Of a stretch of DNA of 64,000 nucleotides, positions 10,622-40,672 are shown one piece after another. The stretch lies in the NCBI GenBank assembly GCA_963705355.1, contig OY970070.1, positions 287,741 through 351,740 of the forward strand. The letters run 5' to 3'. The stretch comes from an uncultured Thermoplasmata archaeon (GTDB lineage: Archaea > Thermoplasmatota > Thermoplasmata > UBA10834). Positions within the stretch are counted from its first letter, which is position 1. Every line of letters begins with the position of its first letter. The notes beneath the pieces were generated by a model that did not search any database, was not told where the DNA came from, and was given only the letters and a program-made list of their open reading frames with translations. A program made the position numbers and the translations under genes.

Positions 10622-10638
10622 GGAGAAGAAGGTCCGAC

Positions 10639-17978: not shown

Positions 17979-19313
17979 TTATACCTTGTGCGAAGCATGC
18001 AGATTGGTTCTCCCTCGCTCGTTCCACCACGGAATTGCTTCTCCGACCAGATACAACGAACCTATCACGCAGAGCCCTCGGCCGCGAGTGTCTTTGGCAG
18101 AGTGATCGAATGCATCCTCGGAACTCTCAAATAGCTCTCGAGGTCCTGAGAACTCTTCGCCAACAATGCTGTCGAGTTTCTTTGCGGGCAGTGCCCTCTT
18201 GCACTTTGCCTGGGTCGAAACTATCTTCTCAGCTGCGGGTATCAGCGCCTTGACTATTCCTCGAGAGTCTTTGTCATCCATACAGCCAAGAACAAATGTG
18301 AGTGGAGTCACCTTAAGACTCTCCAGGACACCGACGGTCGTTGAGACTCCGTCCGGATTGTGGCTTCCATCGAACAGAATCAGTGGATTCCTTGAAACAA
18401 CGTCGAGTCGACCAGGCCACCGAGCTGCCATCAGCCCTCTCCTAATGTCTTCGTCGGTGATGAACACATCTCGTTTTGCCAGCTCCTCGACAATGGCGAT
18501 TGCGCCTGCCGCGTTTTCGGCCTGGTATCCACCCAGCAGATGAGTGTTCAGATTCCTGAGGTTCCTGTCCCCTGAATAGTCGAACTTGGTTCCATTAAGA
18601 GACTGTCGGATCGCGGTCACTTCGAAATCCTTTCCGATCCGCTTCAAAGGGGCGCCCTTCCTCTCGCAGGTGCTGGTGATTACAGCTAGAGCCTCTGGTT
18701 TCCGTTCGCACGTTACTACACTCATACCTTGCTTTACGATTCCCGCCTTCTCTCGAGCGATGTCCTGGATCGTGGTGCCCAAATAGTTCGTATGCTCCAG
18801 GCCGATCCTTGAAATGGCTGAGACCACGGGGCTGAGGACGTTGGTTGCGTCGAGCCTCCCGCCCATGCCGACTTCCGCAACGACCATGTCGACCCCCATC
18901 TCGGCGAAGTACTTGAACGCAAGGCCAGTGGTGAACTCGAAAAACGTGAGCTGTTTTTCCTTGTTCTCCTCCGCCATGGCTTCCATTACCTGGCGAAGGT
19001 TCGTCCCCAGCCTCACGACATCCTCCTCGGAGATCTCTCGTCCGTTTATCCTGATCCGTTCTCTGAAATCGACCAGATGCGGAGAAGTGTACAGCCCAAC
19101 ACGGAGTCCATGCTTTCTCAGGATTTCAGAGGCAAGCACGCAGATTGACCCCTTTCCATTGGTGCCCGCCACATGGATGGATCTGAGGTCGTGGTGCGGA
19201 TTGCCAATCCTTTCTAGGAACTCGGTGATGTTCTCAAGACCGAGCTTAATTCCAAACCGCTCAAGAGAGAACATCCACTCCTTGAACTCATTGTACCGCA
19301 TCGTTGGGGACAA
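17979..19313 (-). CDS. folC: Folylpolyglutamate synthase / dihydrofolate synthase (Mur-ligase family)
   Basis: P-loop HVAGTNGKGS, Mur-ligase middle domain, and a C-terminus typical of FolC. Confidence 0.75.
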   Translation of the reverse strand: MSPTMRYNEFKEWMFSLERFGIKLGLENITEFLERIGNPHHDLRSIHVAGTNGKGSICVLASEILRKHGLRVGLYTSPHLVDFRERIRINGREISEEDVVRLGTNLRQVMEAMAEENKEKQLTFFEFTTGLAFKYFAEMGVDMVVAEVGMGGRLDATNVLSPVVSAISRIGLEHTNYLGTTIQDIAREKAGIVKQGMSVVTCERKPEALAVITSTCERKGAPLKRIGKDFEVTAIRQSLNGTKFDYSGDRNLRNLNTHLLGGYQAENAAGAIAIVEELAKRDVFITDEDIRRGLMAARWPGRLDVVSRNPLILFDGSHNPDGVSTTVGVLESLKVTPLTFVLGCMDDKDSRGIVKALIPAAEKIVSTQAKCKRALPAKKLDSIVGEEFSGPRELFESSEDAFDHSAKDTRGRGLCVIGSLYLVGEAIPWWNERGRTNLHASHKV

Positions 19314-19355
19314 CTTCTCCCATCTTTTAAGGGCTTTGGAGGTCGTGTGCCGCCT

Positions 19356-20135
19356 CTATTCGCCCTCAGCGTTCATCCTCGCCGTCCAGTGGGAAAGGTT
19401 CAATCCCTGCTCCTTCGCCAGCCTTTCCATTGCTCTCAGCACTCCTGAGCTGTACTGGGCGGCCTTCTTGGGCCGATTGCGGGATGGAAGGCCCAGGATT
19501 TCGGCTACCTCTCTGAGGATGATCTTCCGACCGGCAGAACTGACTTTCTTTTCCAGCGGCGTGTCCACAGCTGCAGAAATGACCGTGGCGGTGGCGTATG
19601 GAAATCCAATGGTCTTGCCGAGTGCAGTGGCTTCTGACGCCAGCAGTCGGGCTTCACAGAGCATCTTCGTCAAGTCGGCCGCCATGGTCTCGGCAGGGTT
19701 TCCAACGCGAGAATACTTCGCGTAACCGCCGAACAGCTCATCTGCTCCGCTCCCAGCTAGAACGATTTTCTCTGCGGATCTCTGAAGAACGCAGAGGATC
19801 GGGATCGTGTAGGCGATTTTCACCGGATCGCTCGTATTGAGGATTCTTGATGCCCTTCGCGCAAGAGACTCCACATTCTCCGCCTTCAATTCTATCAAGC
19901 TCAGCTTCCTTCCTTCTTCATCGGCACACTGCCGCGCGTTGAGCGCGTCAAAGGATCCTTCTGTGGCACACGTGTAGCACATTACGCTCGTTTTCTCGCT
20001 GGCAAGTGCTGCAAGTATTGAGCTATCAAGGCCTCCAGAATAGGCGACAGCTGCCCTGCTCTCTTCAGCGATGAGGTCAGATACGGCGGCTCTCAACCTT
20101 GTGAGGAGAAGGTTCGAATTCATGATTGACACCAA
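19356..20135 (-). CDS. Asparagine-synthase-C-terminal-domain-like PP-loop ATP pyrophosphatase
   Basis: SGGLDSS PP-loop and the AsnB-type SGADELFGGY motif in a ~259 aa stand-alone protein. Confidence 0.55.
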   Translation of the reverse strand: MVSIMNSNLLLTRLRAAVSDLIAEESRAAVAYSGGLDSSILAALASEKTSVMCYTCATEGSFDALNARQCADEEGRKLSLIELKAENVESLARRASRILNTSDPVKIAYTIPILCVLQRSAEKIVLAGSGADELFGGYAKYSRVGNPAETMAADLTKMLCEARLLASEATALGKTIGFPYATATVISAAVDTPLEKKVSSAGRKIILREVAEILGLPSRNRPKKAAQYSSGVLRAMERLAKEQGLNLSHWTARMNAEGE

Positions 20136-20296
20136 GAGCCTCGCTCAACGACAAAAACCCATCGTCTTGGCGGGTCTGCGCATAGGCGACATTCTGGTCG
20201 TCTCAGGGCAGCCAGATGATGACCAAAGGCTTAAAAGGCATCGAGGTCATCTACCTGCAATCCCAGGTTTCGAACCCCCAAACGGAGGGCTCATTG

Positions 20297-20830
20297 ATGG
20301 CTGAAGACGACCTGATGAAAGTCAAAGTATGCTTTATCGGAGATGCAGGCGTTGGCAAGACGAGCCTGATCAAGAGATTTGTACTGGACGTGTTCGACGA
20401 CCGGTACATCGCAACGATTGGAACGAAGGTCACCAAGAAGATCGTCGACGTCGACGGCCAGGCGAAGGTCATGATGCTTGTCTGGGACATAATGGGCCAG
20501 AAAGGCTTCAGAGAGCTCCTGCGCGAGGCATATTTCTTCGGCGCCCACGGCGCCATTGCAGTCTGCGACCTCACGAACAAGGAGACACTCGAAGAGCTGA
20601 GATACTGGATCAAGGCCCTGACTGATGTTGCGGGCGATGTCCCTATCGTGTTCGCCGGCAACAAGGTCGATCTCGAGAACGACAGGGTCATCAAGGAGCA
20701 GGACCTGCAGGAGCTGGCTTCGAAGTACAAGGGGAAGTCATTCTTGACGAGCGCGAAGACAGGTCAGAACGTTGAGGCCGCGTTCAAGACCCTCGCTGAG
20801 GCGATGTCCGAAAGAATGAAGAGCCAATAA
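20297..20830 (+). CDS. Ras-superfamily small GTPase, Rab/Ras-like (~178 aa)
   Basis: G1 GDAGVGKT, switch-I T (YIATIGT), G3 WDIMGQ, G4 GNKVD, G5 TSAK, and Rab-like YFFGAHGAI. Start chosen at ATG 20297, 7 nt after a GGAGGG RBS; the track start 20216 is a likely over-extension. Confidence 0.8.
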   Translation: MAEDDLMKVKVCFIGDAGVGKTSLIKRFVLDVFDDRYIATIGTKVTKKIVDVDGQAKVMMLVWDIMGQKGFRELLREAYFFGAHGAIAVCDLTNKETLEELRYWIKALTDVAGDVPIVFAGNKVDLENDRVIKEQDLQELASKYKGKSFLTSAKTGQNVEAAFKTLAEAMSERMKSQ

Positions 20831-20901: not shown

Positions 20902-20982
20902 CGCACGAGAGGCGAGGCTAAATTGGCTGTGCGTTTGGGCAAACGCCTTATAGTGGTAAGTCAAACACAGTCCTTCGGACAC

Positions 20983-23900
20983 ATGAGGATACTCGCTACC
21001 TTCTTCGCCCTTTTCCTTGTCGCATCGCCTTTTCTTCCCTTGGCCAACCATAGCGTTCGCGACGCGGAGGCTGCTTCCCTTTCTTCTTGGACTAGAGTGT
21101 TCTATCTTCATGAGGGCGTAGCGTACGTCCCTTGGGGAACCTATGACTGGTTGAACTCATCGGGCCCCGCGAACCCTTCTCGAACTGACTACGACGGTGA
21201 CGGCGTCGAGGGCATCACCCTCAGACATCCGGGACTATGGCAAACATGGCATGGCTGGATCTTGTATCCGAGAGTTGGTTCTGACGTTTCCGTGTCAGGC
21301 GATATGGGGGTGAATGTCTGGGCGAGAAGCATCGATAACTCGCCGGGAATTGTCATGCGGGCGCGATTCTTTGACATCACAGCAGGTCAATGGTCGGACC
21401 CACGTAATGGAATTGAATTGGGCAATGCGACGCTTCCGCTCGCGGGTCCGGACTACTCTGTGTACCAGCTCTATTCTTTCACGATTGCTAGCGTATCATA
21501 CGTTCTCCCATCTGGTCACTATCTTGCGCTGGTCATCGAGCGACGGGACAATGATAACAGTCGACTCGTGATCTACTTTGACAAAACAGACTATGCCTCT
21601 TACATCACTCTCAACACAACGACTTTCGTGAACGTGGATTCCGCCCGGACCGTGGATTCGTACGGTTCTCCGCGGGGAACCTTCTCAGATCAGGAGAGCG
21701 CCGTTGTTGAGGCGAACGTGTCAGATCCGTTTGGAGCATATGACATAGTGGCAGCCTATGTTCAGGTTTTGAACGAGAGCGGTGTTGTCAACGCGACTAC
21801 TTCGATGAATCTCGTCCAAACAGATCCTTCCCAGCCTGGCTACTGGAAAAGTTACAGCCTGGCACTGTCACTCTTGCCTGAGGGCAGCTACACAGTGAAT
21901 GTCACCGCTAGTGATCCTCAGGGCACGCCCACATGGATGAATCTGTCTCTCACGATTGTGTCGGTCGATCACTTCCTTGTGTCGGCCCCTTCAGCAATCG
22001 TTGCCGGCTCACTCTTCTCGATGACGGTCTCGGCTCTGGATTCCTCCAACTCCATCATAACGAATTGGGTTGGCCAGGTTCAGCTGGCTGCATACGAACC
22101 GGATCTGGTGACGCCGGGGGTGAGGCTGTTGGCTCGGACACTTCTGGTCTTCACGCCGGGTGACGGAGGTCAGGTGACTATATCGGATCAGAACTACACT
22201 TTCGGCGAGGACACGATTCGCATCAAGGCTTCGTCTGGAGTCCACGTTGGCTGGAGCGGGCTCATAGCTGTTTCCAGCGGGCCGGTCATCCGCATCCTCA
22301 TCTCTCCGCCGGGTCCTGAGACCGTCGCTTCAGGAACCTCAAGGGCCTTCACTGCTACGGGCCTTGATGTTCTTGGAAACATCAACACGACTTGGTCTCC
22401 GAATTGGACCGTGCCGTCCAGCATCGGCACGATTTCGGGAGCCGGCCTCTCAGTGACCTTCACAGCTTCGTTGGTTGGCTCGGGTAATCTGAGGTGCAAG
22501 AACGATTTGACAGACGCGAACAGGACCGCTCTTATTAATGTTGTTGTGGGAGAGTTGGCAAGGATTGTCATCTCTGCTCCGTCTGATCCTCTCCTGATTG
22601 GAGAGAACGAGACTCAAGCCCTTACTGCGACTGGCTACGATGTCAATGCAAATCTGGTGGATATCACTGGCGCTATTTGGCGTACCAACACTTCCGGGGC
22701 TGTCAATGGCAGTGGGCCGTCCGGAGTCTATCGGGCGGGATTCATCCCTGAGGTTGGTGTCATCAGCGTCAGAGTCGGCGGCATCGTTGGGGTGCTTAGT
22801 GTTGTCGTTGTTAGCGGTATCCATGGACCCTGGCTCAGCACGATACCGGAGCAGATTCAGAACGAGGACGGAGGGACATGGGAGCTTAGCCTTACTGGGT
22901 ATTGGCATGACGACGAGGGGACCGAGTCCCTCAGATGGTCGGTCGAGGACGTCAATATGTCGCTCTATATCGTCACACATGATCCGAATTCGAATGCCGT
23001 GCTGAGGCTGACCACCCAACCGAATCAGAACGGGGAGGACGCGCTCCGGCTTTGGGTTGTGGACAGTGGAGGCTATTGGACATATCAGTGGGTGACCGTC
23101 AAGATACTCCCGGTAAATGATGCGCCTCAATTCGTCAACAATCCTCCGACGCGACTCAGTGTGAGATTCGACGACCCCTACGTATTCGACTACACGTACT
23201 ATGTCTGGGACGTTGACAATGCGAAGTCGGAATTGGGGATGAGCGCATCCTTGCCCAGCTCCAGCGGCGGCAGCATCGAATTCGATGGACTCATTGCCAC
23301 CTTCCTGTTCCCTTCGGACCCAAGCCGTGGCTCGACCTACTTCGAGATTGTCACTCTTTCAGTGATAGATCCCGCCGACGCTTCTTCTCAATTGAAGTTA
23401 GCCGTATATGTCACTTGGGACTACCCTCCTCGCTTGAACACCAGCCTGCCCAACCAAACGCTGTATGAGGGGGACGTCCTTCACTATTGTTTTAACCTCG
23501 ACTCATATTTCTATGATGTTGAGGGCTCGTACCTATATTACTCCTACGGCTTCCAGCATCTCCAGGTCTACATAGCCTGGAACCACTCGGTCTACATGAA
23601 CGCGACGGAGGAGTGGTCTGGCACGACCGACGGCGCGTTCACTGCCACAGACCCTGAAGGTGCTCTGAAGACCGACATGATCACAGTCACCGTGATCGCA
23701 GTCAATGATGCGCCGATTGTGAGAAGTCCAGGATCTATTCTAGTGAAATACAACGTCACATACTACCTCTACCTGAGCCAGTATGTGTTCGACCCGGACA
23801 ACTCAATTGATTCCTTGACATTCACGTTCAACGACACGCACGTGAAGGAGACATCGACCTTCATGGGCAGCTACCGACTCGAGATACTGTTTCCGGGAAG

Positions 23901-25149
23901 CATCCTCCCTGATTCCGATATCTTCCTTGGCCCATACCTTGTCTATGTTCACATGGAGGTTACTGATCCTGGTGGTCTGATGACCCCCTGCAATTTCACG
24001 GTCTTTGTGACGGACGACGCTCCGCCGACTGTGATTGCCCCGAATCCGGACGCGACTTACTACGCATTCCCTGAGAACTCATATCTGAACAACTCGCTGA
24101 GGATGTACGATTTGTTCTGGGATCCCGACGATTCGATGCTCAATTTCACAATCGTGGGGAACAGATTCGTTCACCTCCAAATCTACTCAAACGGTGTCGT
24201 CAATCTGACTTCAGATGTGAATTGGTCGGGAACGGAGGTCCTCACAATCACGGCAAAGGATTCACATCTCGGCTGGGCATCGTTCCGCGCGTACGTGACG
24301 GTCACGCCAGTCAATCAGGCTCCTTGGATCTATCCAATCCCCGACATGATCGTCAAGACGGGGCATATTGATGCGCCATTCTACATCCTCGACTACATTT
24401 ACGATAGCGACGATGCTCCGGAGAACCTGACGATTACTGCATCTCCTGCTGAGAGCGTGGCTGTCGTCGGAGGGTTCCTCTACGTCACGCTCCCGCACGG
24501 AGTTGATGTCATAACGGTCACCATTCAGGCGAGCGACGGCAAATTGCAGTCCAATGTCAGAATCTTCAAGGTTGGTGTGGAGAAGACGATGGCTGAGAGA
24601 ATCGGCTGGCCCTATACGTTCCCGCTTGTGTTGCTGGCGGCAGGCGTCGCGGGCTACTTCCTGGCGAGCCGGATCCCGCGGCCGTACGCGCTTGAGAACA
24701 TCTTCCTCATTCACAACGATGGCAGGCTCATTGCACATGTCACCAAAGAGGAGAACACTAATCTGGACAAGGATGTGGTGAGCGCCATGTTCACGGCAGT
24801 CCAAGAGTTCGTCCGGGACTCCTTCCAGAAAGGTGAGGTGGGACTCAAGAAGCTTGAGATCGGTGACAAGAGAGTCATCATCGAGAAGGGGCAGTGGGCT
24901 TACGCCGCGTTGATATACTCTGGTTGGCCGGCGAAGGAGACCTTCGAGAACCTCCCCATGCTATTGAGGGACATCGAGGAACGCTACAAGGGCAGGCTGG
25001 AGAGGTGGAACGGCACCATGAAGACCGTCGTGGGGGTCGACAAGATGCTCCAAGAGTTCATGGCGGATACCTACAGGCCGGGAACGTGGCACGAAGAGGA
25101 GGAGATCGGTGAGGAGCGGTGGGTCGACATCCTCGAGAAGGAGGCCTAG
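20983..25149 (+). CDS. Giant (~1390 aa) secreted/membrane-anchored surface protein: signal peptide, N-terminal DxDxDG-containing domain, cadherin-like repeats, one C-terminal TM helix, cytoplasmic Roadblock/LC7-like domain
   Basis: Signal peptide MRILATFFALFLVASPFLPLA. Many N-x-S/T sequons. Repeated cadherin-type linkers (VNDAPQF, AVNDAPIV, PVNQAPWI) with DxD/DxNxD motifs. TM helix WPYTFPLVLLAAGVAGYFLA, then IFLIHNDGRLIAH...DVVSAMFTAVQEF...GLKKLEIGDKRVIIEKGQWAYAALIYSG, which matches the Roadblock/LC7 pattern. The track start 20923 is a TTG; ATG 20983 gives a cleaner signal peptide. Confidence 0.7.
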   Translation: MRILATFFALFLVASPFLPLANHSVRDAEAASLSSWTRVFYLHEGVAYVPWGTYDWLNSSGPANPSRTDYDGDGVEGITLRHPGLWQTWHGWILYPRVGSDVSVSGDMGVNVWARSIDNSPGIVMRARFFDITAGQWSDPRNGIELGNATLPLAGPDYSVYQLYSFTIASVSYVLPSGHYLALVIERRDNDNSRLVIYFDKTDYASYITLNTTTFVNVDSARTVDSYGSPRGTFSDQESAVVEANVSDPFGAYDIVAAYVQVLNESGVVNATTSMNLVQTDPSQPGYWKSYSLALSLLPEGSYTVNVTASDPQGTPTWMNLSLTIVSVDHFLVSAPSAIVAGSLFSMTVSALDSSNSIITNWVGQVQLAAYEPDLVTPGVRLLARTLLVFTPGDGGQVTISDQNYTFGEDTIRIKASSGVHVGWSGLIAVSSGPVIRILISPPGPETVASGTSRAFTATGLDVLGNINTTWSPNWTVPSSIGTISGAGLSVTFTASLVGSGNLRCKNDLTDANRTALINVVVGELARIVISAPSDPLLIGENETQALTATGYDVNANLVDITGAIWRTNTSGAVNGSGPSGVYRAGFIPEVGVISVRVGGIVGVLSVVVVSGIHGPWLSTIPEQIQNEDGGTWELSLTGYWHDDEGTESLRWSVEDVNMSLYIVTHDPNSNAVLRLTTQPNQNGEDALRLWVVDSGGYWTYQWVTVKILPVNDAPQFVNNPPTRLSVRFDDPYVFDYTYYVWDVDNAKSELGMSASLPSSSGGSIEFDGLIATFLFPSDPSRGSTYFEIVTLSVIDPADASSQLKLAVYVTWDYPPRLNTSLPNQTLYEGDVLHYCFNLDSYFYDVEGSYLYYSYGFQHLQVYIAWNHSVYMNATEEWSGTTDGAFTATDPEGALKTDMITVTVIAVNDAPIVRSPGSILVKYNVTYYLYLSQYVFDPDNSIDSLTFTFNDTHVKETSTFMGSYRLEILFPGSILPDSDIFLGPYLVYVHMEVTDPGGLMTPCNFTVFVTDDAPPTVIAPNPDATYYAFPENSYLNNSLRMYDLFWDPDDSMLNFTIVGNRFVHLQIYSNGVVNLTSDVNWSGTEVLTITAKDSHLGWASFRAYVTVTPVNQAPWIYPIPDMIVKTGHIDAPFYILDYIYDSDDAPENLTITASPAESVAVVGGFLYVTLPHGVDVITVTIQASDGKLQSNVRIFKVGVEKTMAERIGWPYTFPLVLLAAGVAGYFLASRIPRPYALENIFLIHNDGRLIAHVTKEENTNLDKDVVSAMFTAVQEFVRDSFQKGEVGLKKLEIGDKRVIIEKGQWAYAALIYSGWPAKETFENLPMLLRDIEERYKGRLERWNGTMKTVVGVDKMLQEFMADTYRPGTWHEEEEIGEERWVDILEKEA

Positions 25150-33219: not shown

Positions 33220-34119
33220 ATGGCCGGGCTGATCGGCTGCTCTGGCTGGTCGTACGACGATTGGGTGGGAAGGTTCTATCCAAGCGACCTTGCGAGGAAG
33301 AAAGGTGAGTGGTTATCATACTACTCCAGATTCTTCTCGACGGTCGAGATCAATTCCACGTTCTATCGCGTTCCGAACGATTACATGGTCAGGTCCTGGA
33401 TAGAGCGCGGGAAGCAGAAACCCGGCTTCGAGTTCTCCGTGAAGCTCCCCCAGATTGTCACGCACGAATCCATACTGAAGGCTGATGGCGAAAAGGCTGC
33501 TGCGCAGGCATCCAGTTTCGAGAGTATTTGTGTGAGGCCCCTCGCGGAGGCTGGATTGCTGGGCGGGGTCCTTGTGCAGCTCACGCCCTACTTCCGTCTC
33601 GAAGGAAATGAGAGTCTGGGTAAGCTCAGGGCGCTGCTGGATGTGTTGGACACCGACGCGCACGACTACGCTGTCGAATTCAGGCACAGGAGCTGGCTCA
33701 ACGAGAGAGGAAACGAGCTTGCTGCCGACGCCCTCGAGACGCTTCAGGAATTCGGCGTGGCCAACGTGATTGTCGACGGACCTGGTTTTCCTGTGACCAG
33801 GTCGCTCACGGCCAAGCACGCATATGTCAGGTTTCACGGCAGGAACTACGATATCTGGTTCAAGGACGAGAAAGAGGATGACTACCGAATAAACCGGTAC
33901 GATTTCCTCTACACGCATGAGCAGCTCGAACCCTGGCGGCCGAGGCTGCAGGAGATCATATCTAACTGCAGGGTGGCGAGGATATACTTCAACAACCACG
34001 GACGTGCCAAGGCGGTCAAAGACGCATTCATGATGATGGACCTGCTTGGCGTTCCTCATGAGGAGAAGGACATCGACATCCAGGACCAGATGACCCTCGG
34101 CAAGTTCGGCGCGCCCTAG
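33220..34119 (+). CDS. DUF72 (UPF0759) family protein
   Basis: N-terminus MAGLIGCSGWSYDDWVGRFYP is the family signature. Start moved from 33139 to ATG 33220. Confidence 0.7.
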   Translation: MAGLIGCSGWSYDDWVGRFYPSDLARKKGEWLSYYSRFFSTVEINSTFYRVPNDYMVRSWIERGKQKPGFEFSVKLPQIVTHESILKADGEKAAAQASSFESICVRPLAEAGLLGGVLVQLTPYFRLEGNESLGKLRALLDVLDTDAHDYAVEFRHRSWLNERGNELAADALETLQEFGVANVIVDGPGFPVTRSLTAKHAYVRFHGRNYDIWFKDEKEDDYRINRYDFLYTHEQLEPWRPRLQEIISNCRVARIYFNNHGRAKAVKDAFMMMDLLGVPHEEKDIDIQDQMTLGKFGAP

Positions 34120-36539
34120 CTGGCCAACTCCGCCTTGCTCGTGCCGTCTTCCTGCTCTTCCACTCTGATTATGTAGTTCATCGTGTCCTTGATGTCCTCG
34201 ATGTGAGTGATCAAGAATATCTGTCTGAATTGGGTCGACAGGCGTGACAGCGCCGTCATGACGCTTCTCTTCCTGTTGAGATCCTGAGAGCCGAATATCT
34301 CGTCCAGTATGAGGAAATTGATCGGAGTCGCTCCAGTCCTGTCCGCGATGATCCTCGAGATGGCGAGGCGCAGGCTCAGGTTCGCCAGATCCGATTCGCC
34401 TCCTGAGAAGCGGTCTATCGGGTATGAAGTGCCCTGGTCATCTATCTGCATCTCGTAGTTCTCGTCCAGCTCGACGTTCGCATACCTTCCCTCGGTCATC
34501 GACTCCAGCCCCTTGGAAGTGAGCTCTGACAGGACAGGTGCGATCCGGCCGATCAGATGGTCCTTGAAGTTGATTACGACATCCTCGAGCAGCGCCAAAT
34601 CCTCCGCTTTCTTCCTGTCCTTCTCGATGGCCTTCTTGACGCGGGCTATCCCCTCGATCTCTTGTCGGGCTCGAGCGAGCTCGGAGTCCGCCTTCTCCTT
34701 AATGCTGCCGAGCTTTCGCAGAGCGTCCTTGGCGGAGTTGAGTATGGCAGTTTTTTCATCAAGCTCAGCTAATGTCGATTCGTATAAGCTCTTCTTTGGT
34801 CCAAGAGCCTCAACCATCCCTCGATATTGTCCCTCCTCTACCGTTCCATTCTTTATCGCCGCCCGCACGTCCTCGATCTCGCGGGCATAATGATCCGACT
34901 GCGCCTTGAGGCTCTTCAGCTCAAGATATGTCTCGTGCGCGGCCTTGAGTCTTTCGTGCTCAACGATGACCATCTCGTAGTCCTTGTCGGTGAACCTGAC
35001 CTCGCCGAGTTCGAATCGGCTCTTCTTGCGGTCCGATAGTCTAGTCCTCACCTTGGCCAGTTCGAGTTCTTTCTCCTTGGTGGAAGCCTCCATCTGCCTC
35101 ATCTTCATGAGTTGCTGGTCAAGGTTCGCCTTCTTCCTCTTCAGCGCATCCTCTTTGCTCGTGAGAGTCCTGAGCTCGGAATCAAGCTTGTCGATGTCGG
35201 CCTGCGCCCCTCTGGCCATCTTATCTGCATCCGCAGAGCTATCGGTGAGTTTCTTCAGAAGAAGCCCGTATGAGTCGTCGAGCTTGCGCTCGCAAGTTGG
35301 GCAGACGCCATCCCTTCCCGCGGTCTTGATCTCTTCCAGCTTCCTCCGGTCCTTTGTCGCCGCATCTTTTCTGTCCGATACGACCGACTTGAGCTCTCCC
35401 ACGCGCAAGTTGATCTCGGTCCTTCTTGCCTGGCATTCGGCATTCGCCTTCTCCACATCGCCTATCTTCGTCACGATGTCCGCCGCGTCCTCTGCGCTCG
35501 CTCTGAGCCTCGCAAGCTCGTCCTGTCTCCGAGATTCCTCGGCCTCATCGGTGGCGATCTCCTGCTGAATCATCTTCATCCTCTCGTTTCTGGACTTCTC
35601 TTTCTCGAAGTCTTCCTTCCTCTTCGAGACGAGCTTCCACGCCTCCTCGTCCTTCTCTGCTGACGGCAATTTCTTGAGTCTGGCGTTGGCTTCCGCCAGC
35701 TTTGTTGCCGTGATCCTTTCCCTGCTTCGCATCTCTGCAAGTGCCGATTGCTTGGCCTTCAGGTCCCCGAATGCGGAATTGTACGCATCCACATCCTTCT
35801 TCAGCTCGTCTCTCCTCTTGCGGGCCAAGTCCGCGGCCGTAGCGGCTTCTCTTTCCTGCTGTTCCGCGACGGCGAGCTCTGTTGACGCTTTCTCGAGCGT
35901 TGCGGTCAGTCCAGGCATCTTTTCATCAAGCACTTTCTCGCGCTCTCTGCCATCCTCGGTGAGAAGGGTTTTCTGTGCGCCCTCGATTCTGGAGAGCGAA
36001 TCCTTGCGGTCCGCTCTTATCTCAGTCAGGACCGAATCCACGCCGTCTATCCTCAGCATTCTCAGGACGACCTTCTTTCTCTCTCCCGCGGCGACGTTCT
36101 GGAGCGCGTTGAGCTCTTTCTGTCTGGCGAACACCGATGTGAAGAACGATTTGTGATCCATCCCCAGCAGTCTCTCGACCATCTTCCTAACTGGCTTGTC
36201 GCCCTCTGCGAGCACCTTGTCCTTTGTCCTCAACTCCGCGCGCATGGAGAGGCTCCTTCCTCCCATCTCCCGCTCGATCTTGTACTCCGTTCCCCCGAGC
36301 TCGAATTCAAGGATGGCAGTGCAGGTCTCGCCGGCTCCGGAGCCAGCTCTCCTGATTCCCTCTCTGGAGGTCCGCACAACCTCATCGACATTCCCGAACA
36401 ACGCCCAGGCGATCCCTTCTATGACGGTGGTTTTCCCGACGCCGTTGAGACCGAGTATTCCCACTATTCCGTCGGGAAACTGGAGCTCGAGCTCCTTGAA
36501 TCGTCTGTAGTTCTTGAGCTTGAGATAGGAGATCCTCAT
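34116..36539 (-). CDS. rad50: DNA double-strand-break repair ATPase Rad50
   Basis: Walker A GLNGVGKTT, long coiled coils, zinc-hook CPTCERKL, signature/Walker B ...LILDEIFGSQD, D-loop. Confidence 0.9.
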   Translation of the reverse strand: MRISYLKLKNYRRFKELELQFPDGIVGILGLNGVGKTTVIEGIAWALFGNVDEVVRTSREGIRRAGSGAGETCTAILEFELGGTEYKIEREMGGRSLSMRAELRTKDKVLAEGDKPVRKMVERLLGMDHKSFFTSVFARQKELNALQNVAAGERKKVVLRMLRIDGVDSVLTEIRADRKDSLSRIEGAQKTLLTEDGREREKVLDEKMPGLTATLEKASTELAVAEQQEREAATAADLARKRRDELKKDVDAYNSAFGDLKAKQSALAEMRSRERITATKLAEANARLKKLPSAEKDEEAWKLVSKRKEDFEKEKSRNERMKMIQQEIATDEAEESRRQDELARLRASAEDAADIVTKIGDVEKANAECQARRTEINLRVGELKSVVSDRKDAATKDRRKLEEIKTAGRDGVCPTCERKLDDSYGLLLKKLTDSSADADKMARGAQADIDKLDSELRTLTSKEDALKRKKANLDQQLMKMRQMEASTKEKELELAKVRTRLSDRKKSRFELGEVRFTDKDYEMVIVEHERLKAAHETYLELKSLKAQSDHYAREIEDVRAAIKNGTVEEGQYRGMVEALGPKKSLYESTLAELDEKTAILNSAKDALRKLGSIKEKADSELARARQEIEGIARVKKAIEKDRKKAEDLALLEDVVINFKDHLIGRIAPVLSELTSKGLESMTEGRYANVELDENYEMQIDDQGTSYPIDRFSGGESDLANLSLRLAISRIIADRTGATPINFLILDEIFGSQDLNRKRSVMTALSRLSTQFRQIFLITHIEDIKDTMNYIIRVEEQEDGTSKAELAS

Positions 36540-37648
36540 TCCTCATCCCTCATCAGGTAGGGCATTCCCATCTCCATCAGCTTGCTCTTCTTTTCATCTG
36601 AGACATCGAGCGATATCACATATTTCTTGAACTCGTCAGCCAGAAGGCCTATTTGGGTGTCGCCCACCTGCTTCTGACCTTCGCCCTCGACCTTGTCGAC
36701 TTTGAGCTCGAAGTGAAGAGCGCTGCTGCCCATCCTCCTGATCGCCTGCACATCGAGCGATCTGTACGCGTCCGAAGCGACGTTCTTGATTGTGAGCCGG
36801 ACGATTCTCTCATCGATGATCGCGCCGCTCATCCGCTCCTTTGCTTCCTGAAGAATCTCAGAAGAGGTCAGTCTGTACGCGTCGAACACTTCCATGTCCA
36901 GCATGCTGCGGACACGCAGTTCGTGAAACTTGACCGCGTGTGTGTCTAGGTCCACCTCGATGATCCCTTTCTTCTGTTCGGCTTCGCCGAAGCTGAGTCT
37001 CTCCGTCGATCCGGAATAGTATGCCCTCGGGCAGACCTTCTTGAACTCGTGATAGTGGCCAAGTGCGACATAATCCCATTCTGGTGATATGTTCTCGGCG
37101 GGGACGGTCTGCTCGTTGAACTCGTCCATCTTGTAGGTGTCGGTGCCGACAACTCCTGCATGAATGACCAACACGCCGAGCTTGGTGTCTCTGGACGGTC
37201 TCAGTCCTGACGTGATTTCAGCCAGAGACGGGTTCGTAGAGTGCGGTAACGCGTATATCGTCGCATCTCCGACGACGATGGTCTTTCCTCCGGGCTCATG
37301 CACTGGATGGACGTGCTTCAGATGTTCGAATATGCGGAAGATGTTACCTGTCTCGCGGAGGCGTGGCGTGGAATGGTTGCCGGAAACCAGTATTGTTTCG
37401 ATGCCCGATTCGGATAGCCTGATGAGCTGCCTCAACGCGAAGTCTATGGCGCGGTTCTGTGGTCTCACCGTGTCGAACAGGTCCCCCGAATGGACGACGA
37501 CCTCGGGCCTGAGCTCGATTGTCTTGTCGATTGCCTCCTGAAACGCGTGGTAGAAGTCCGCCTCTCGCTGGTTGATGCCCTCAGCAACGTCGAGCTTGGA
37601 ATATGCGCTGAAACCCAGATGGGTATCAGACAGGTGGACCAGCTTCAA
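36536..37648 (-). CDS. mre11: DNA double-strand-break repair nuclease Mre11
   Basis: Phosphoesterase motifs HLSDTHLG, GDLFD, GNHS, HAG. TTG start overlaps the stop of the upstream antiporter gene by 2 nt. Confidence 0.9.
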   Translation of the reverse strand: MKLVHLSDTHLGFSAYSKLDVAEGINQREADFYHAFQEAIDKTIELRPEVVVHSGDLFDTVRPQNRAIDFALRQLIRLSESGIETILVSGNHSTPRLRETGNIFRIFEHLKHVHPVHEPGGKTIVVGDATIYALPHSTNPSLAEITSGLRPSRDTKLGVLVIHAGVVGTDTYKMDEFNEQTVPAENISPEWDYVALGHYHEFKKVCPRAYYSGSTERLSFGEAEQKKGIIEVDLDTHAVKFHELRVRSMLDMEVFDAYRLTSSEILQEAKERMSGAIIDERIVRLTIKNVASDAYRSLDVQAIRRMGSSALHFELKVDKVEGEGQKQVGDTQIGLLADEFKKYVISLDVSDEKKSKLMEMGMPYLMRDEE

Positions 37649-39519
37649 CTCCTTCCACGCTCCATCGTCGCTATGATGTCCTCGATCTCAGCGAGGTCCG
37701 CCGACGAGTCTCCGAAGGCAGATGTTCCTCTGTGCTCGAAGATCTCCGTCAACTTCTTGTCTATGGTCTTCACTGAACCCCAGAGAGCGATGATTGCCAC
37801 AGCGATGATGGGCACGGCGAGCAGAGCGAACGTGAGTCCCTGCTGTGCGAGCGAGTTGATAAGTGGGGAGATCACGACGAACCCCACGACCATGTAGATG
37901 GCAAGGAAGACCCACTTGAGCGCCTTCGAGGTATCCTGATAGCCGATGTTCACTGCGGATTTGGTGCTCAGCATGGCCTCGCTGGTGGATATCTCGATGA
38001 GCCTTATGGTCCTGCTCCAGATGCCGAACAATGCAGATGCGACGACTACAAGCGAACCCGTGATCAGCACGAACAGAAAGAGCTCCTCATTGTTGCCTAC
38101 GAAACCAGCGTAGTCCCGTATCTTGGGGGCAGCCCCGACCGCAATCGCAGAGACTGATACCATGACGATGATGTAGACGAAAAGCCGGGAAATACTAATT
38201 CTCATCTCGTTTGATATTTTCAGAGACGTTTGCGAGCGCCTTCTCATGTTCCTGACCACGAGGTTGAAATACGATGCAAGCAAAAGGAGCGATCTTGGCA
38301 CTCTTTCCTCGACAACTTTCGTCGCCCTGTCAGAGTACTTCACGCTGTAGGGAACGACCAGAGCCGAGATCGTCGTCACAAGGACGATGGTTGGATAGAG
38401 GTTGATGCTCTTGCTTATCGCCGTAGACCCGATTGCAACGGCAGCTATCATCAGAGAGAACTCACCGACGGCGATCATGCTGAGACCAGCGCCGATGGAG
38501 TTCCTCGCGCCGAACCCGAATATGAATGTTGAGAGTGAGCATGAGAATATCTTGGCCAGGATGAAGACGAGAGTGATGATTGCGGCAGTTATGAGGAATT
38601 CGCTGTTGAGGAAGAGCTTGAGATCTACAAGCATACCCACCGTGATGAAGAATATCGCGCCAAAGAGATCCCGGATCGGCTCCACGCGCCTAACCACATC
38701 TCCGAGGTACCTTGACTCGGACACGATGACCCCCATGACGAAAGCTCCAATTGCTTCTGAGAATCCTATCCACCTCGAGAATACCGCCATCGAGAAGCAC
38801 AGCCCAAGGACTGTGAGCACCAGAAGTTCTCCAGACCGCTGCTTTCCCACATAGTCCACGAGTCTGGGCACAACCGCGAGGCCGAACACGATCGAGGCCG
38901 CAATGAAAATCCCCATCTTCAGCAGAAGATCGGCGAGTTGAGATGGTTCGATGCCTCCTTGAGAGATGAGTCCCGAGACTGCCGCCAAGATGAGGACCGC
39001 TGCGAAGTCCTCCACGATCAGGAGCCCGACGATCAGCCGAGCCTTCTCATTATCCAGTCCTCCTCTCTCTCTCAAGGACCTCACAACTATCATCGTCGAT
39101 GCCACCGACAGCATCGCACCAAGAAGAGTGGACTCGAGCCCGCTCCAGCCAAGCGCTCGTCCCAGCTGGTACCCGATGCCAATCATCAATGCGATTTCGA
39201 GAGCTGCCGCCGCGATCACCGTGACCCCTATCTTCCGGAGCTGCTTCAAGCTGAACTCAAGGCCGATCGAGAAGGTGATAAGGACGATCCCGAGCCTCGC
39301 GAGCATCTCGATAACTGGCTGTGCGGAAATGACAGTCTGAGATCCCTCTGAGCCCACAGTGTATTGAGCCGATATCACGAACGGACCTGCGACCATGCCT
39401 GCTACTAGATACCCCAAAATGAGGGGCTGCTTCAACCGATTGAAAAGGATGATGATGGTGGCGGCGACCGCGATCACGATTGCCATGTTGATGAGGAAAC
39501 CCGTCTGCAGGTCTAGCAT
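37645..39519 (-). CDS. CPA2-family monovalent cation:proton antiporter (Kef/NapA-like) with an extra C-terminal membrane domain
   Basis: ~13 TM helices with CPA2 core features, plus a ~200 aa C-terminal extension carrying further hydrophobic helices. Confidence 0.75.
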   Translation of the reverse strand: MLDLQTGFLINMAIVIAVAATIIILFNRLKQPLILGYLVAGMVAGPFVISAQYTVGSEGSQTVISAQPVIEMLARLGIVLITFSIGLEFSLKQLRKIGVTVIAAAALEIALMIGIGYQLGRALGWSGLESTLLGAMLSVASTMIVVRSLRERGGLDNEKARLIVGLLIVEDFAAVLILAAVSGLISQGGIEPSQLADLLLKMGIFIAASIVFGLAVVPRLVDYVGKQRSGELLVLTVLGLCFSMAVFSRWIGFSEAIGAFVMGVIVSESRYLGDVVRRVEPIRDLFGAIFFITVGMLVDLKLFLNSEFLITAAIITLVFILAKIFSCSLSTFIFGFGARNSIGAGLSMIAVGEFSLMIAAVAIGSTAISKSINLYPTIVLVTTISALVVPYSVKYSDRATKVVEERVPRSLLLLASYFNLVVRNMRRRSQTSLKISNEMRISISRLFVYIIVMVSVSAIAVGAAPKIRDYAGFVGNNEELFLFVLITGSLVVVASALFGIWSRTIRLIEISTSEAMLSTKSAVNIGYQDTSKALKWVFLAIYMVVGFVVISPLINSLAQQGLTFALLAVPIIAVAIIALWGSVKTIDKKLTEIFEHRGTSAFGDSSADLAEIEDIIATMERGRS

Positions 39520-39751
39520 CCTAAATGCACCATTCTCTGATGTCCGCCGTAGCCAGCAGAACCGCTCTCGCTGTTGCCTGGATGAACAGCAACAAGCCGC
39601 CCATTCGGCTCGCGAAAGGGCTCTGGCTCACGCATATCCTTCATGTTACTTAATTGTGGCCCTTCCATCAATCCTTCAGTTTGCATCGGAAAACATGGTC
39701 TGAGGAGCTCATGGAAAATTCAAATGGACAGAAGCGCATCAATCCCTTGGG

Positions 39752-40672
39752 ATGCCGAACTTCAGAACTAGATTCGCACAGTCGACAGAAGACCCGAGAG
39801 TCAGAGCGAAACTCTTCGGGATCGGGAGTGCTGGGTGCAACATCGTTGAGGGGACTCAGTTCCCCACAGTTGCATTTTCGACTTCCAGCGCGGATCTTGC
39901 GCGATCCCATGCTGAGAGAAAGGTCTTGATAGGCCAGGACCGGTTGCTTGGGCTATCTGATGCCGGACCAGATCTGATGAAGCGCTTGCCGACTGTTGTC
40001 GGCCATGAATTACTGGATATATTCAACAACACCGAAGTCGCTTTCATAATGTGCGGCCTCGGAGGCGTCACGGGAAGCCTTGGATCCAAACTCCTCACAT
40101 CAATCGCAAAGGCAAAGGGAGCGATGGGGATCGCACTTGTCGCGATGCCGTTCTCGGCCGAGAGTTTCAAGCGCAGGGAGGTAGCGACTACCGCCTTGGC
40201 GGATTTGTTGGGGTCATCGGCCATGTGCGTCGCTTTCGACAACGACAAGCTTTCATCCCTGGCTCCCAATCTGCCACTTTCGAGGGCATTTGGCCTCTTG
40301 AACGGGATAATGCTCAGACCTGTCATCGACCTGTGCGCAACGATGTCCAGGAGCGATCTCAGCATATTCCGTGAGGTCGTGGGCGGAGCAACATATGCGC
40401 GGTTCGGGCTTGGCATGGCAAGGGGCGACGAGAGGCTTCAGAGGGTTGTTGATGAATCTCTGAGCTCTCCTTGGTTCGACTACGACATCAAGGAGGCGAC
40501 TGCGGCGATAGCTGTGTACTCAGCGGCCGATCCATGGGACAAGGAGATCGACAAGATTCTCGGCCTTCTTGAGGGAAAACTGCCTTCCATCCGGATTCTC
40601 TGGGGTTCATATGCGGATCCGCGGCTTGGCGATCGGATAAGGCTCAGCCTCCTTATCTGCCGGAGCCGCTAG
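39752..40672 (+). CDS. Divergent FtsZ/tubulin-superfamily protein (compact, 306 aa)
   Basis: Collinear with FtsZ: KLFGIGSAGCNIV (cf. GVGGGG), GLGGVTGSLG (cf. GGGTGTG), MPFSAESFKRR (cf. RPFSFEGKRR), ...DNDKL (cf. IPNDRLL), and a C-terminal domain. The glycine-rich and T7 regions are degenerate. Confidence 0.65.
   Translation: MPNFRTRFAQSTEDPRVRAKLFGIGSAGCNIVEGTQFPTVAFSTSSADLARSHAERKVLIGQDRLLGLSDAGPDLMKRLPTVVGHELLDIFNNTEVAFIMCGLGGVTGSLGSKLLTSIAKAKGAMGIALVAMPFSAESFKRREVATTALADLLGSSAMCVAFDNDKLSSLAPNLPLSRAFGLLNGIMLRPVIDLCATMSRSDLSIFREVVGGATYARFGLGMARGDERLQRVVDESLSSPWFDYDIKEATAAIAVYSAADPWDKEIDKILGLLEGKLPSIRILWGSYADPRLGDRIRLSLLICRSR

Follow-up and report, generated by a model that had tools for sequence, protein, structure and literature searches.

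A compact FtsZ-like protein of Thermoplasmata with a vestigial T7 loop, encoded beside an mre11-rad50 operon

How far can an FtsZ be pared down and still be kept by a cell? The question is raised by a 306-amino-acid protein encoded in a 64,000-nucleotide stretch of contig OY970070.1, from an uncultured Thermoplasmata archaeon; the whole 64-kb stretch is called the window here, and the gene and its product are called the compact gene and the compact protein. An earlier reading of the letters without database searches (the sequence-only reading) had described the product as a compact, divergent paralog within the FtsZ/tubulin superfamily with a degenerate GTP-binding signature and had considered a noncanonical cytoskeletal or membrane-remodeling function for it. 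What is known of FtsZ-based division in archaea comes mostly from haloarchaea and methanogens, and to our knowledge, the Thermoplasmata, many of which have no cell wall, are almost unstudied. We describe here that the compact protein belongs to the FtsZ branch of the tubulin superfamily and fails five canonical features of FtsZ, namely, the FtsZ equivalog score, the T4 signature, the T7 loop, the T2 and T3 loops, and the C-terminal SepF-binding tail. The gene is functional and vertically inherited, and it belongs to an old clade of FtsZ derivatives found across several Thermoplasmata lineages rather than being an isolated oddity. The explanation that we favor, at a little better than even confidence, is that the product would be a nucleotide-binding, hydrolysis-deficient, untethered accessory FtsZ that forms or modulates nondynamic assemblies and is possibly coregulated with Mre11-Rad50. 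We are more confident of what is said on structure and evolution and have little confidence in the specific cellular role.

An FtsZ fold with altered nucleotide loops

The compact protein matches the Pfam families PF00091 (Tubulin; 52 bits, with a cutoff of 33) and PF12327 (FtsZ_C; 31.9 bits, with a cutoff of 27) and aligns over its full length with FtsZ1 of Methanocaldococcus jannaschii (Mj FtsZ1) at an expect value (E) of 3e-31, which bears out the collinearity with FtsZ that had been read from the sequence. On TIGR00065, the NCBIfam equivalog model for FtsZ, it scores 108.8 bits and thus falls below the 295.2-bit cutoff. An AlphaFold2 (AF2) model built from the family alignment has a mean predicted local distance difference test score (pLDDT) of 92.5 and a predicted template modeling score (pTM) of 0.92, and the top structures retrieved with this model by Foldseek are all FtsZ, at a template modeling (TM) score of about 0.8. 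Taken together, the Pfam matches, the model, and the Foldseek search give a two-domain architecture, with an N-terminal Rossmann-type GTPase domain followed by an FtsZ-type C-terminal domain.

The protein is indeed shorter than bona fide FtsZ: the linker and tail are missing, and the H1-S2 region is 6 to 8 residues shorter in the alignment with canonical proteins. Past the last core strand, the chain has 3 to 5 residues, compared with a median of 31 to 33 in canonical archaeal FtsZs, and a comparison of tails found neither the C-terminal linker nor a SepF-binding peptide after the domain ends at residue 304. Canonical Thermoplasmata FtsZ1 proteins end in GIEF- or GLDF-type peptides, none of which is present in the compact protein. 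These ends correspond to the GID-type motif by which the archaeal FtsZ tail binds SepF (PMC8178401). At the other end of the protein, an N-terminal peptide, MPNxRTRF, is kept across the close family (residues 1 to 10, window positions 39752 to 39781), with M1 being invariant and P2 being present in at least 90% of members; AF2 predicts a short additional β-strand at residues 4 to 7. The N termini of canonical archaeal FtsZs are long and variable. The MPNxRTRF peptide could be a partner-binding motif.

All of the motifs that the sequence-only reading had quoted are present, namely, GIGSAGCN (T1), GLGGVTGSLG (T4), PFSAESFKRR, DNDKL, and SRSDLSIFRE (T7) (Table 1). Within the close family, G23, G25, A27, and G28 of T1 are 100% conserved and N30 is 84% conserved (96% in the wider clade described below); G102, G104, G105, and G108 of T4 are invariant; E137 and R141 are found in 100% of the family and 98% of the wider clade; and in helix H7, F180 is 100% conserved and N184 is 96% conserved. 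Tubulins carry Asn at the position equivalent to Asn184. Over the whole compact clade, the binding residues (the five T1 residues and four T4 glycines just named, E137, R141, N164, and F180) are 83 to 100% conserved.

The losses are just as consistent. The canonical archaeal sequences in our set comprise an FtsZ1 clade and a 19-member clade B (probable FtsZ2); the canonical Asn and Asp of T2 are conserved in 89 to 100% of both, whereas the compact family has S43 (93%) and S45 (100%). T3 reads SD-AG-P in compact proteins instead of the canonical GAGGNP. At T4, the pattern GGGTG[ST]G is replaced by GGVTGSL: position 106 is V, L, or T in the family and E or D in the wider clade, and the last glycine is L, M, or I family-wide, whereas all of the 146 canonical archaeal sequences have Gly at both positions. 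The T7 region had been described as altered, and it is, but by a 5-residue deletion and not by mere substitution. The NxDxxD motif of this synergy loop, by which an FtsZ subunit completes the active site of its neighbor, is lost: its Asn is deleted and Ile205 stands in place of its second catalytic Asp, with the first Asp being kept as D202 (84%). Since only about 4 residues connect helices H7 and H8 (residues 202 to 210) in the AF2 model, the T7 loop is essentially gone. The description of the GTP-binding signature as degenerate therefore needs to be divided: by sequence comparison, the residues predicted to hold the base, the ribose, and the α- and β-phosphates are kept, whereas those predicted to sense the γ-phosphate and Mg (T2 and T3) and the catalytic residues of T7 are lost.

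A clade of compact proteins in Thermoplasmata

Among 5.8 billion proteins searched, 204 matched, and the best 120 matches are clusters of a close family. This family comprises at least 120 clusters at 54 to 98% identity, mostly 304 to 315 amino acids long, the few shorter ones being partial; its named members come from Thermoplasmata or Thermoplasmatota metagenome-assembled genomes (MAGs) and from "Euryarchaeota archaeon RBG_13_57_23." Four loci were found in the genome collection, all from uncultured Thermoplasmata or Thermoplasmatota, the top one being 97% identical (isolate MFD13565), and a contig of >1 Mb is also recorded as carrying the identical protein. The ratio of nonsynonymous to synonymous substitution rates (dN/dS) is 0.157 between the window and its relative L001 and 0.079 between L003 and L004; the compact gene is thus under purifying selection, with a dN/dS of 0.08 to 0.16, and 49 columns are invariant across the 63 sequences of the family alignment. 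The altered motifs are not due to chance or sequencing noise, as at least 120 homologous clusters and the wider clade share them.

In an exhaustive search of representatives, the close family appeared as a single 50%-identity representative (421 bits), followed by other proteins of about 300 to 310 amino acids with 25 to 37% identity (190 to 120 bits) and then by canonical-length FtsZs at about 90 to 115 bits. The named members of this wider clade are Thermoplasmata, Methanomassiliicoccales, or Thermoplasmatota MAGs, and the proteins have in common the T7 and T3 deletions and a lost T2; their T4 follows the pattern GLGG-x-TGS, and their T1 is usually GGAGCN. When 234 sequences (59 compact proteins and 175 other FtsZs) were aligned, the 5-residue T7 deletion was found in 57 of the 59 compact proteins and the 1-residue T3 deletion in 54, and neither was found in any of the 175 others; tails have a median length of 5 residues in the compact clade versus 31 to 33 in canonical proteins. 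Neighbor-joining (NJ) trees group the compact proteins together; since deep bootstrap values are low, the clade is defined mainly by these exclusive indels and by synteny. When the diverse compact clade was used as a profile, canonical FtsZs were retrieved as well, at about 270 bits, and the clade was not delimited; the search also found P0425 (see below) and more Thermoplasmata names. Three T7-deleted proteins, P0338, P0337, and P0182, are longer (341 to 353 amino acids); the gene for P0338 (positions 10001 to 11026 of locus L009) adjoins pyruvate:ferredoxin oxidoreductase genes and has no mre11-rad50 neighbor. These three may be a functionally distinct offshoot. A candidate for a second compact gene on the contig of P0074 (P0377) was rejected as a coincidence.

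To which branch of the superfamily does this clade belong? The family profile scores 143.5 bits against Mj FtsZ1, 77 to 121 bits against bacterial FtsZs, 30.7 and 16.6 bits against the structures of CetZ1 and CetZ2 (PDB 4B45 and 4B46), and 12 bits against tubulin. CetZ gave no match in the single-sequence search, in which TubZ/RepX appeared only marginally (E of 0.86). No match to Tubulin_2, the Pfam family of FtsZL1, was found at an E of ≤10, with PF00091 and PF12327 alone being reported, and the reading of the protein as FtsZL1 was rejected on this ground; the nearest proteins in the plasmid and phage collections were ordinary FtsZs at ≤28% identity. From the profile scores, the missing Tubulin_2 match, and the lack of plasmid or phage homologues, the compact protein is an FtsZ derivative, and the clade as a whole is FtsZ derived and not a part of CetZ, TubZ, or tubulin.

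Its position among the archaeal FtsZs is less clear-cut. All FtsZ1-typed markers fall in the FtsZ1 clade, namely, Mj FtsZ1, the Methanobacteriales FtsZs, and the Thermoplasmata gene in the secE-nusG-rpl11 context; for Methanobacteriales, a single FtsZ is reported, in M. smithii (Pende et al.). The gene for P0164, a member of clade B, has neither a secE-nusG nor a ribbon-helix-helix (RHH)/ParD neighbor, and because this context gave no confirmation, the equation of clade B with FtsZ2 is provisional. Only one alignment column qualified as diagnostic for FtsZ1 versus FtsZ2, too few to be informative. The mean scores of the compact clade are about 145 to 150 bits on the FtsZ1, clade B, and outlier/bacterial-type hidden Markov models (HMMs) alike, whereas FtsZ1 and clade B members score 360 to 540 bits on each other's HMMs; the window protein alone scores 172.7 bits on the clade B HMM versus 153 to 160 bits on the FtsZ1 HMMs. 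In the larger NJ tree, the compact clade lies outside both FtsZ1 and clade B, with deep nodes at ≤46% bootstrap. The equal scores on clade-specific HMMs favor no single branching point; the clade may derive from FtsZ2. The proposal that the protein stands apart from canonical FtsZ is thus borne out by the equivalog score, by the equal HMM scores, and by the loss of the T7 catalytic residues, and affinity to CetZ, TubZ, or FtsZL1 is contradicted by the profile and Pfam results, while the trees place it outside FtsZ1 and clade B with weak bootstraps.

Related Thermoplasmata do have canonical FtsZ. P0425 is a canonical Thermoplasmatota FtsZ of 374 amino acids in the classical ftsZ1 context, with another canonical copy directly upstream. 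The members of such pairs (369 and 374 or 375 amino acids) are 64% identical to each other, 56 to 57% identical to Mj FtsZ1, and 41 to 44% identical to clade B; by these mutual and Mj FtsZ1 identities, the pair is a duplication of FtsZ1. A gene for a PAS domain sensor precedes the pair, which lies directly upstream of secE-nusG-rpl11-rpl1-rpl10-rpl12. Many Thermoplasmata MAGs, RBG_16_68_12 among them, encode relatives of P0425, and canonical FtsZ1 occurs in MAGs that share habitats and project with those carrying the compact gene; in the loci and sequences examined, the probable FtsZ2 clade had no member of clear Thermoplasmata origin. According to the taxon table of Pende et al., most Thermoplasmata genomes encode 1 to 3 or more FtsZ-family proteins and one SepF, and a few encode none. 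The window has no second FtsZ homologue, and no assembly with both a canonical ftsZ and the compact gene was found among those compared. For this reason, the term "paralog" used by the sequence-only reading is supported at the level of the lineage only: canonical FtsZ1 occurs in related MAGs.

The mre11-rad50 junction

The compact gene faces an operon, transcribed in the opposite direction, in which a Na+/H+ antiporter gene precedes mre11 and rad50 (Table 1). The joining of an antiporter with mre11 and rad50 in one operon is an odd functional combination; this insertion is also found in the distant locus L024, but in L007 and L025 it is absent, and mre11 is the immediate, facing neighbor of the ftsZ-like gene. 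Downstream of the compact gene are genes for a saccharopine dehydrogenase-like protein (SacDH), diphthine synthase (Dph5), Trm5/Taw2, dCTP deaminase, and an M42 peptidase. The block is conserved in the close family, and the mre11-rad50 junction is kept in L001 to L005, L007/8, L011, L023, L024, and L025. Of the 6 deep subclades sampled, 5 have it, which shows orthology, down to 30 to 38% protein identity, and long vertical inheritance. The context ftsZ1-secE-nusG-rpl11-rpl1-rpl10, seen in L006 and L012 to L015, does not occur at the compact locus. GC content is uniform in the window, which has no SepF, MinD, or ESCRT gene.

Two short elements are conserved between the divergent genes. A box resembling a TFB recognition element (BRE) and TATA box, GAAAATTCAA, would be the putative promoter of the compact gene itself, as judged from the intergenic alignment, and an invariant octamer, TTACTTAA, may serve the divergent operon as a promoter or operator. 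The divergent pairing with mre11-rad50 (and nurA-herA) suggests coregulation with double-strand-break repair, which is the weakest step of our argument. For the membrane-remodeling function that had been considered, we found no specific support: the loss of the SepF-binding tail speaks against canonical tethering, and the sole conserved genomic partner is the mre11-rad50 operon.

Table 1. Features of the compact gene, its surroundings in the window, and comparison loci
Feature	Locus	Position	Strand	Residues	Remarks
Compact FtsZ-like coding sequence	Window	39752..40672	+	1-306	Intact open reading frame (ORF), ATG start, 306 amino acids plus stop; Pfam, AF2, dN/dS
T1 loop, GIGSAGCN	Window	39818..39841	+	23-30	Glycines and Asn kept, one Gly replaced by Ser26
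T2 remnant, STSSA	Window	39878..39892	+	43-47	Canonical N-T-D-x-Q gone; N-T-D replaced by S-T-S
T3 remnant, GLSDAGPD	Window	39950..39973	+	67-74	1-residue deletion; γ-phosphate-sensing GAGGN gone
T4 tubulin-signature region, GLGGVTGSLG	Window	40055..40084	+	102-111	Third Gly replaced by Val106, last Gly by Leu110
PFSAESFKRR	Window	40148..40177	+	133-142	Ribose/base-contact Glu137 and Arg141 kept
FDNDKL	Window	40235..40252	+	162-167	Asn164, 100% in all groups
Helix H7	Window	40277..40342	+	176-197	Base-stacking Phe180; guanine-contacting Asp replaced by Asn184 (AF2 secondary structure and residue audit)
Vestigial T7 and start of H8, MSRSDLSI	Window	40343..40366	+	198-205	5-residue deletion; alignments and AF2 model
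FtsZ C-terminal globular domain	Window	40394..40663	+	215-304	Pfam FtsZ_C at residues 216-301; clade-specific SPWFD motif
BRE/TATA-like box, GAAAATTCAA	Window	39714..39723	+		29-38 nucleotides upstream of ATG; intergenic alignment of window and L001-L005
Invariant octamer, TTACTTAA	Window	39646..39653			Intergenic region between antiporter-mre11-rad50 and ftsZ-like gene; same in all six close loci, flanks diverged
Divergent operon	Window	34116..39519	-		Na+/H+ antiporter 37645-39519, Mre11 36536-37648, Rad50 34116-36539; ORFs, Pfam; 4-nucleotide overlaps
Compact gene, P0332	L007				Compact protein 38%, Mre11 40% identity; same slot
Compact gene, P0149	L023				Compact protein 30%, Mre11 23% identity; adjoins Mre11
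Compact gene, P0125	L024				Methanomassiliicoccales type; antiporter present too
Compact gene, P0127	L025				Complete herA-nurA-rad50-mre11 operon; unrelated genes downstream
P0338	L009			341 amino acids	Different context, the exception
Tandem ftsZ1	L006	8753-11125			Both copies with SepF-type tails
Tandem ftsZ1	L012, L013, L014	4756-7128			Both copies with SepF-type tails
Tandem ftsZ1	L015	2417-4789			Both copies with SepF-type tails

Proposed function, rival explanations, and known relatives

Judged from the residues kept and lost, the compact protein probably still binds guanine nucleotide, but it would be unable to stimulate hydrolysis on an adjacent subunit and would have no nucleotide-state switch, and SepF would be unable to tether it to the membrane. 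Because trans-hydrolysis, switch, and tether would all be missing, it would not be a dynamic, treadmilling division FtsZ. It most likely would self-associate or coassemble with canonical FtsZ1 into nondynamic assemblies and thereby could serve as a stabilizer, cap, or scaffold beside the division machinery. The top face (T2 and T3) and the bottom face (T7) have changed together, and the T2 residues and D202 are conserved in the close family; a remodeled association interface is therefore favored over a plain loss of assembly.

Several observations weigh against this accessory-FtsZ explanation. Phosphate binding could be blocked entirely by the Val or Leu that replaces the third glycine of T4 and by the Leu that replaces the last one. 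The NJ bootstrap values are low, at 46% for the compact core, 29% for all 59 compact proteins, 1.5% for the FtsZ1 clade, and 25% for clade B. The compact gene is found in GCA_038852105.1 and GCA_038870435.1 and FtsZ1 in other assemblies (GCA_038870335.1, GCA_038894075.1, and GCA_038848995.1), and GC contents of 52% versus 61% show that the compact gene and FtsZ1 assemblies represent different lineages. The mre11-rad50 junction is part of a longer block in which unrelated housekeeping genes (DUF72, Dph5, Trm5, and Dcd) are conserved as well, because of which the adjacency possibly reflects historical synteny and not functional coupling; moreover, the P0338 subclade has no such junction, and in the window the antiporter gene intervenes.

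Among the other explanations, the most serious is that the compact protein is the Thermoplasmata orthologue of FtsZ2, fast evolved and stripped down but still a core component of the ring together with a duplicated FtsZ1. FtsZ1 and FtsZ2 are both present in most archaea (PMC8178401, PMC9871819), whereas both members of the tandem pair are of the FtsZ1 type and the Thermoplasmata lack an evident clade B protein in our set. The window protein scores higher on the clade B HMM than on the FtsZ1 HMMs, and the smaller tree that was built first placed the compact clade as the sister of a largely clade B group, which also included P0215, a protein that later fell in the FtsZ1 clade. These points are offset by the equal mean HMM scores of the clade, by its weakly supported position outside both groups in the larger tree, and by the provisional status of clade B as FtsZ2. 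In addition, the function of Haloferax FtsZ2 reportedly needs SepF anchoring and an intact T7, and the compact protein has neither the SepF-binding tail nor T7. We regard the FtsZ2 explanation as unlikely, at roughly one chance in a handful. Less probable, and doubtful in its details, is a "dead-end" FtsZ subunit that would be nucleotide bound and dock on FtsZ1 filaments or dimers with no hydrolysis trigger and no SepF anchor; with its control region shared with mre11-rad50, it would act as a SulA-like division brake, built from FtsZ, that responds to DNA damage or chromosome status, or it would be an obligate, nonhydrolyzing heterodimer partner of FtsZ1, in the manner of α/β-tubulin. The two versions are given this small likelihood jointly.

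The remaining explanations fit the data poorly. A CetZ-like role in cell shape would suit an extra tubulin-superfamily protein in an archaeon that lacks division-gene context at this locus, and the sequence leaves a shape role possible; membership of the CetZ family, in contrast, is contradicted by the C-terminal match to FtsZ_C, and the CetZ reading was rejected on the family profile scores (31 and 17 bits to CetZ1 and CetZ2 versus 143 to FtsZ1) and the missing single-sequence match. CetZs also keep a functional GTPase and T7. This reading is quite improbable, and slightly more so is the view that the protein is the sole or principal division FtsZ of the organism and merely divergent. The latter would agree with the single FtsZ homologue of the window, with the lack of a same-genome canonical ftsZ among the assemblies compared, and with some Thermoplasmata genomes for which the supplement of Pende et al. 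lists at most one FtsZ-family protein, but the T7 catalytic loop, the T2 and T3 loops, and the SepF-binding tail are gone, canonical FtsZ1 is common among the MAGs of related Thermoplasmata, and 64 kb is a small fraction of a genome, the identical protein being on a contig of >1 Mb. Origin from a plasmid or virus as a TubZ/PhuZ-type segregation protein, or a recent horizontal gain, would be in line with the divergence of the protein, the marginal RepX/TubZ match, and the presence of an IS110 transposase elsewhere in the window. Against it stand a chromosomal slot conserved among housekeeping genes in lineages whose Mre11 proteins are 23 to 40% identical and the uniform GC content; the TubZ-like mobile-element reading was rejected since the plasmid and phage collections hold no close homologues, and we consider such an origin very improbable. 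A decaying, pseudogene-like relic without function is the least credible of all: the hallmark catalytic motifs are gone, but the ORF is intact at every locus, the model is very confident, the promoter-like box is conserved, and the selection data given above (dN/dS and the invariant positions) effectively refute it.

The best match to the compact protein in both sequence and structure is archaeal FtsZ1 (Mj FtsZ1, PDB 1FSZ and 1W58; P0425), which has the same two-domain fold and a collinear core and shares the T1 glycines, most of T4, PF..E..R, N-D-x-L, and the H7 Phe. At about 29 to 32% identity, the compact protein differs from it in having no N-terminal extension, linker, or GID-type peptide, in the T7 deletion, in the loss of T2 and T3 and of two T4 glycines, and in not being encoded in the secE-nusG-rpl11 context. 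The degenerate FtsZ-like protein of Thaumarchaea appears to be the closest characterized analogue in kind: Nmar_1262 of Nitrosopumilus maritimus has the tubulin signature AGKAGSA and no T7 NVDFAD and does not polymerize (PMC3684127). The match is one of features only: both are archaeal FtsZ homologues that have degenerated alike at T4 and T7, and the compact protein P0149, in the Thermoplasmata-type mre11 slot, even has the T4 sequence GLGGKAGSG. However, the family of the window keeps more of T4 (GGxTGS), and Thaumarchaea divide by Cdv, whereas Thermoplasmata relatives carry canonical FtsZ1. A deep "FtsZ-like" clade with Culexarchaeia, distinct from FtsZ1, FtsZ2, and CetZ and including uncharacterized Thermoplasmata, is found in a supplementary tree of Kohtz et al. 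2022 (PMC9723716), where neither a loss of T7 and tail nor an mre11-rad50 linkage is described; compared by description only, the compact clade may overlap it. In the literature, we found no description of the T7 and tail losses or of the mre11-rad50 linkage.

In mechanism, T7-defective FtsZ mutants would be the closest analogue. FtsZ T7 mutants lose GTPase activity, and their assembly can be hyperstable. Engineered examples with a shortened or inactivated T7 are the ΔT7 GAG and GAN proteins of S. aureus (PDB 3WGK, 3WGL, and 3WGM), which are among the Foldseek matches of the compact model, and E. coli D209A and D212A; these are otherwise canonical laboratory proteins, whereas the loss in the compact clade is natural and ancient and is accompanied by a remodeled opposite face and the loss of the tail. 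FtsZm and truncated FtsZ-like paralogs of magnetotactic bacteria are likewise compact and tailless, with a nondivision role beside canonical FtsZ; likened here by description only, they differ in being bacterial, in having intact GTPase motifs, and in polymerizing. T7-defective FtsZ still binds GTP, and its assembly is aberrant (PMC3684127). CetZ (Haloferax CetZ1 and CetZ2) is similar as an additional, nondivision superfamily protein in Euryarchaeota, but the sequence affinity is very weak and the compact C-terminal domain is a Pfam FtsZ_C domain. FtsZL1 (Tubulin_2) is a divergent group of the FtsZ superfamily for which nondivision roles have been proposed (Makarova and Koonin 2010, PMC2875224); its proteins are extended and multidomain and lie in characteristic operons, in contrast to the minimal, 306-amino-acid single module described here.

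If the losses hold, the compact clade is a natural experiment in what the FtsZ fold can do without its dynamics, such as capping, stabilizing, or scaffolding; it could reveal how paralogs specialize, and it bears on the origin of the division of labor between α- and β-tubulin. If the protein should instead be a fast-evolving FtsZ2, it would be a ring component able to do without T7 and SepF binding. We know of no checkpoint protein that links DNA repair and division in archaea, and the pairing with mre11-rad50 is a testable lead to such a link.

Several other genes of the window deserve mention. Positions 20216 to 20830 (+) encode a 204-amino-acid protein with a strong, eukaryote-type match to the Ras family (PF00071, 134.9 bits), as well as to Roc and Arf, and directly after it is an ORF of 1,408 amino acids with no Pfam match (20923 to 25149, +); the two could form a small-GTPase module with a giant partner. 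At 17979 to 20135 (-), a Mur ligase-like gene (Mur_ligase_M and Mur_ligase_C) adjoins an asparagine synthase-like gene, an arrangement reminiscent of a pair of the MurT/GatD type or of a module for modifying surface polymers. The IS110-family transposase mentioned above (DEDD_Tnp_IS110 and Transposase_20) is encoded at 61864 to 62919 (+). Finally, at 8924 to 11961 (+), an N6/N4 DNA methylase-like ORF of 447 amino acids, with a Pfam match at residues 42 to 101 only, overlaps by 4 nucleotides the end of a class II aminoacyl-tRNA synthetase-like gene.

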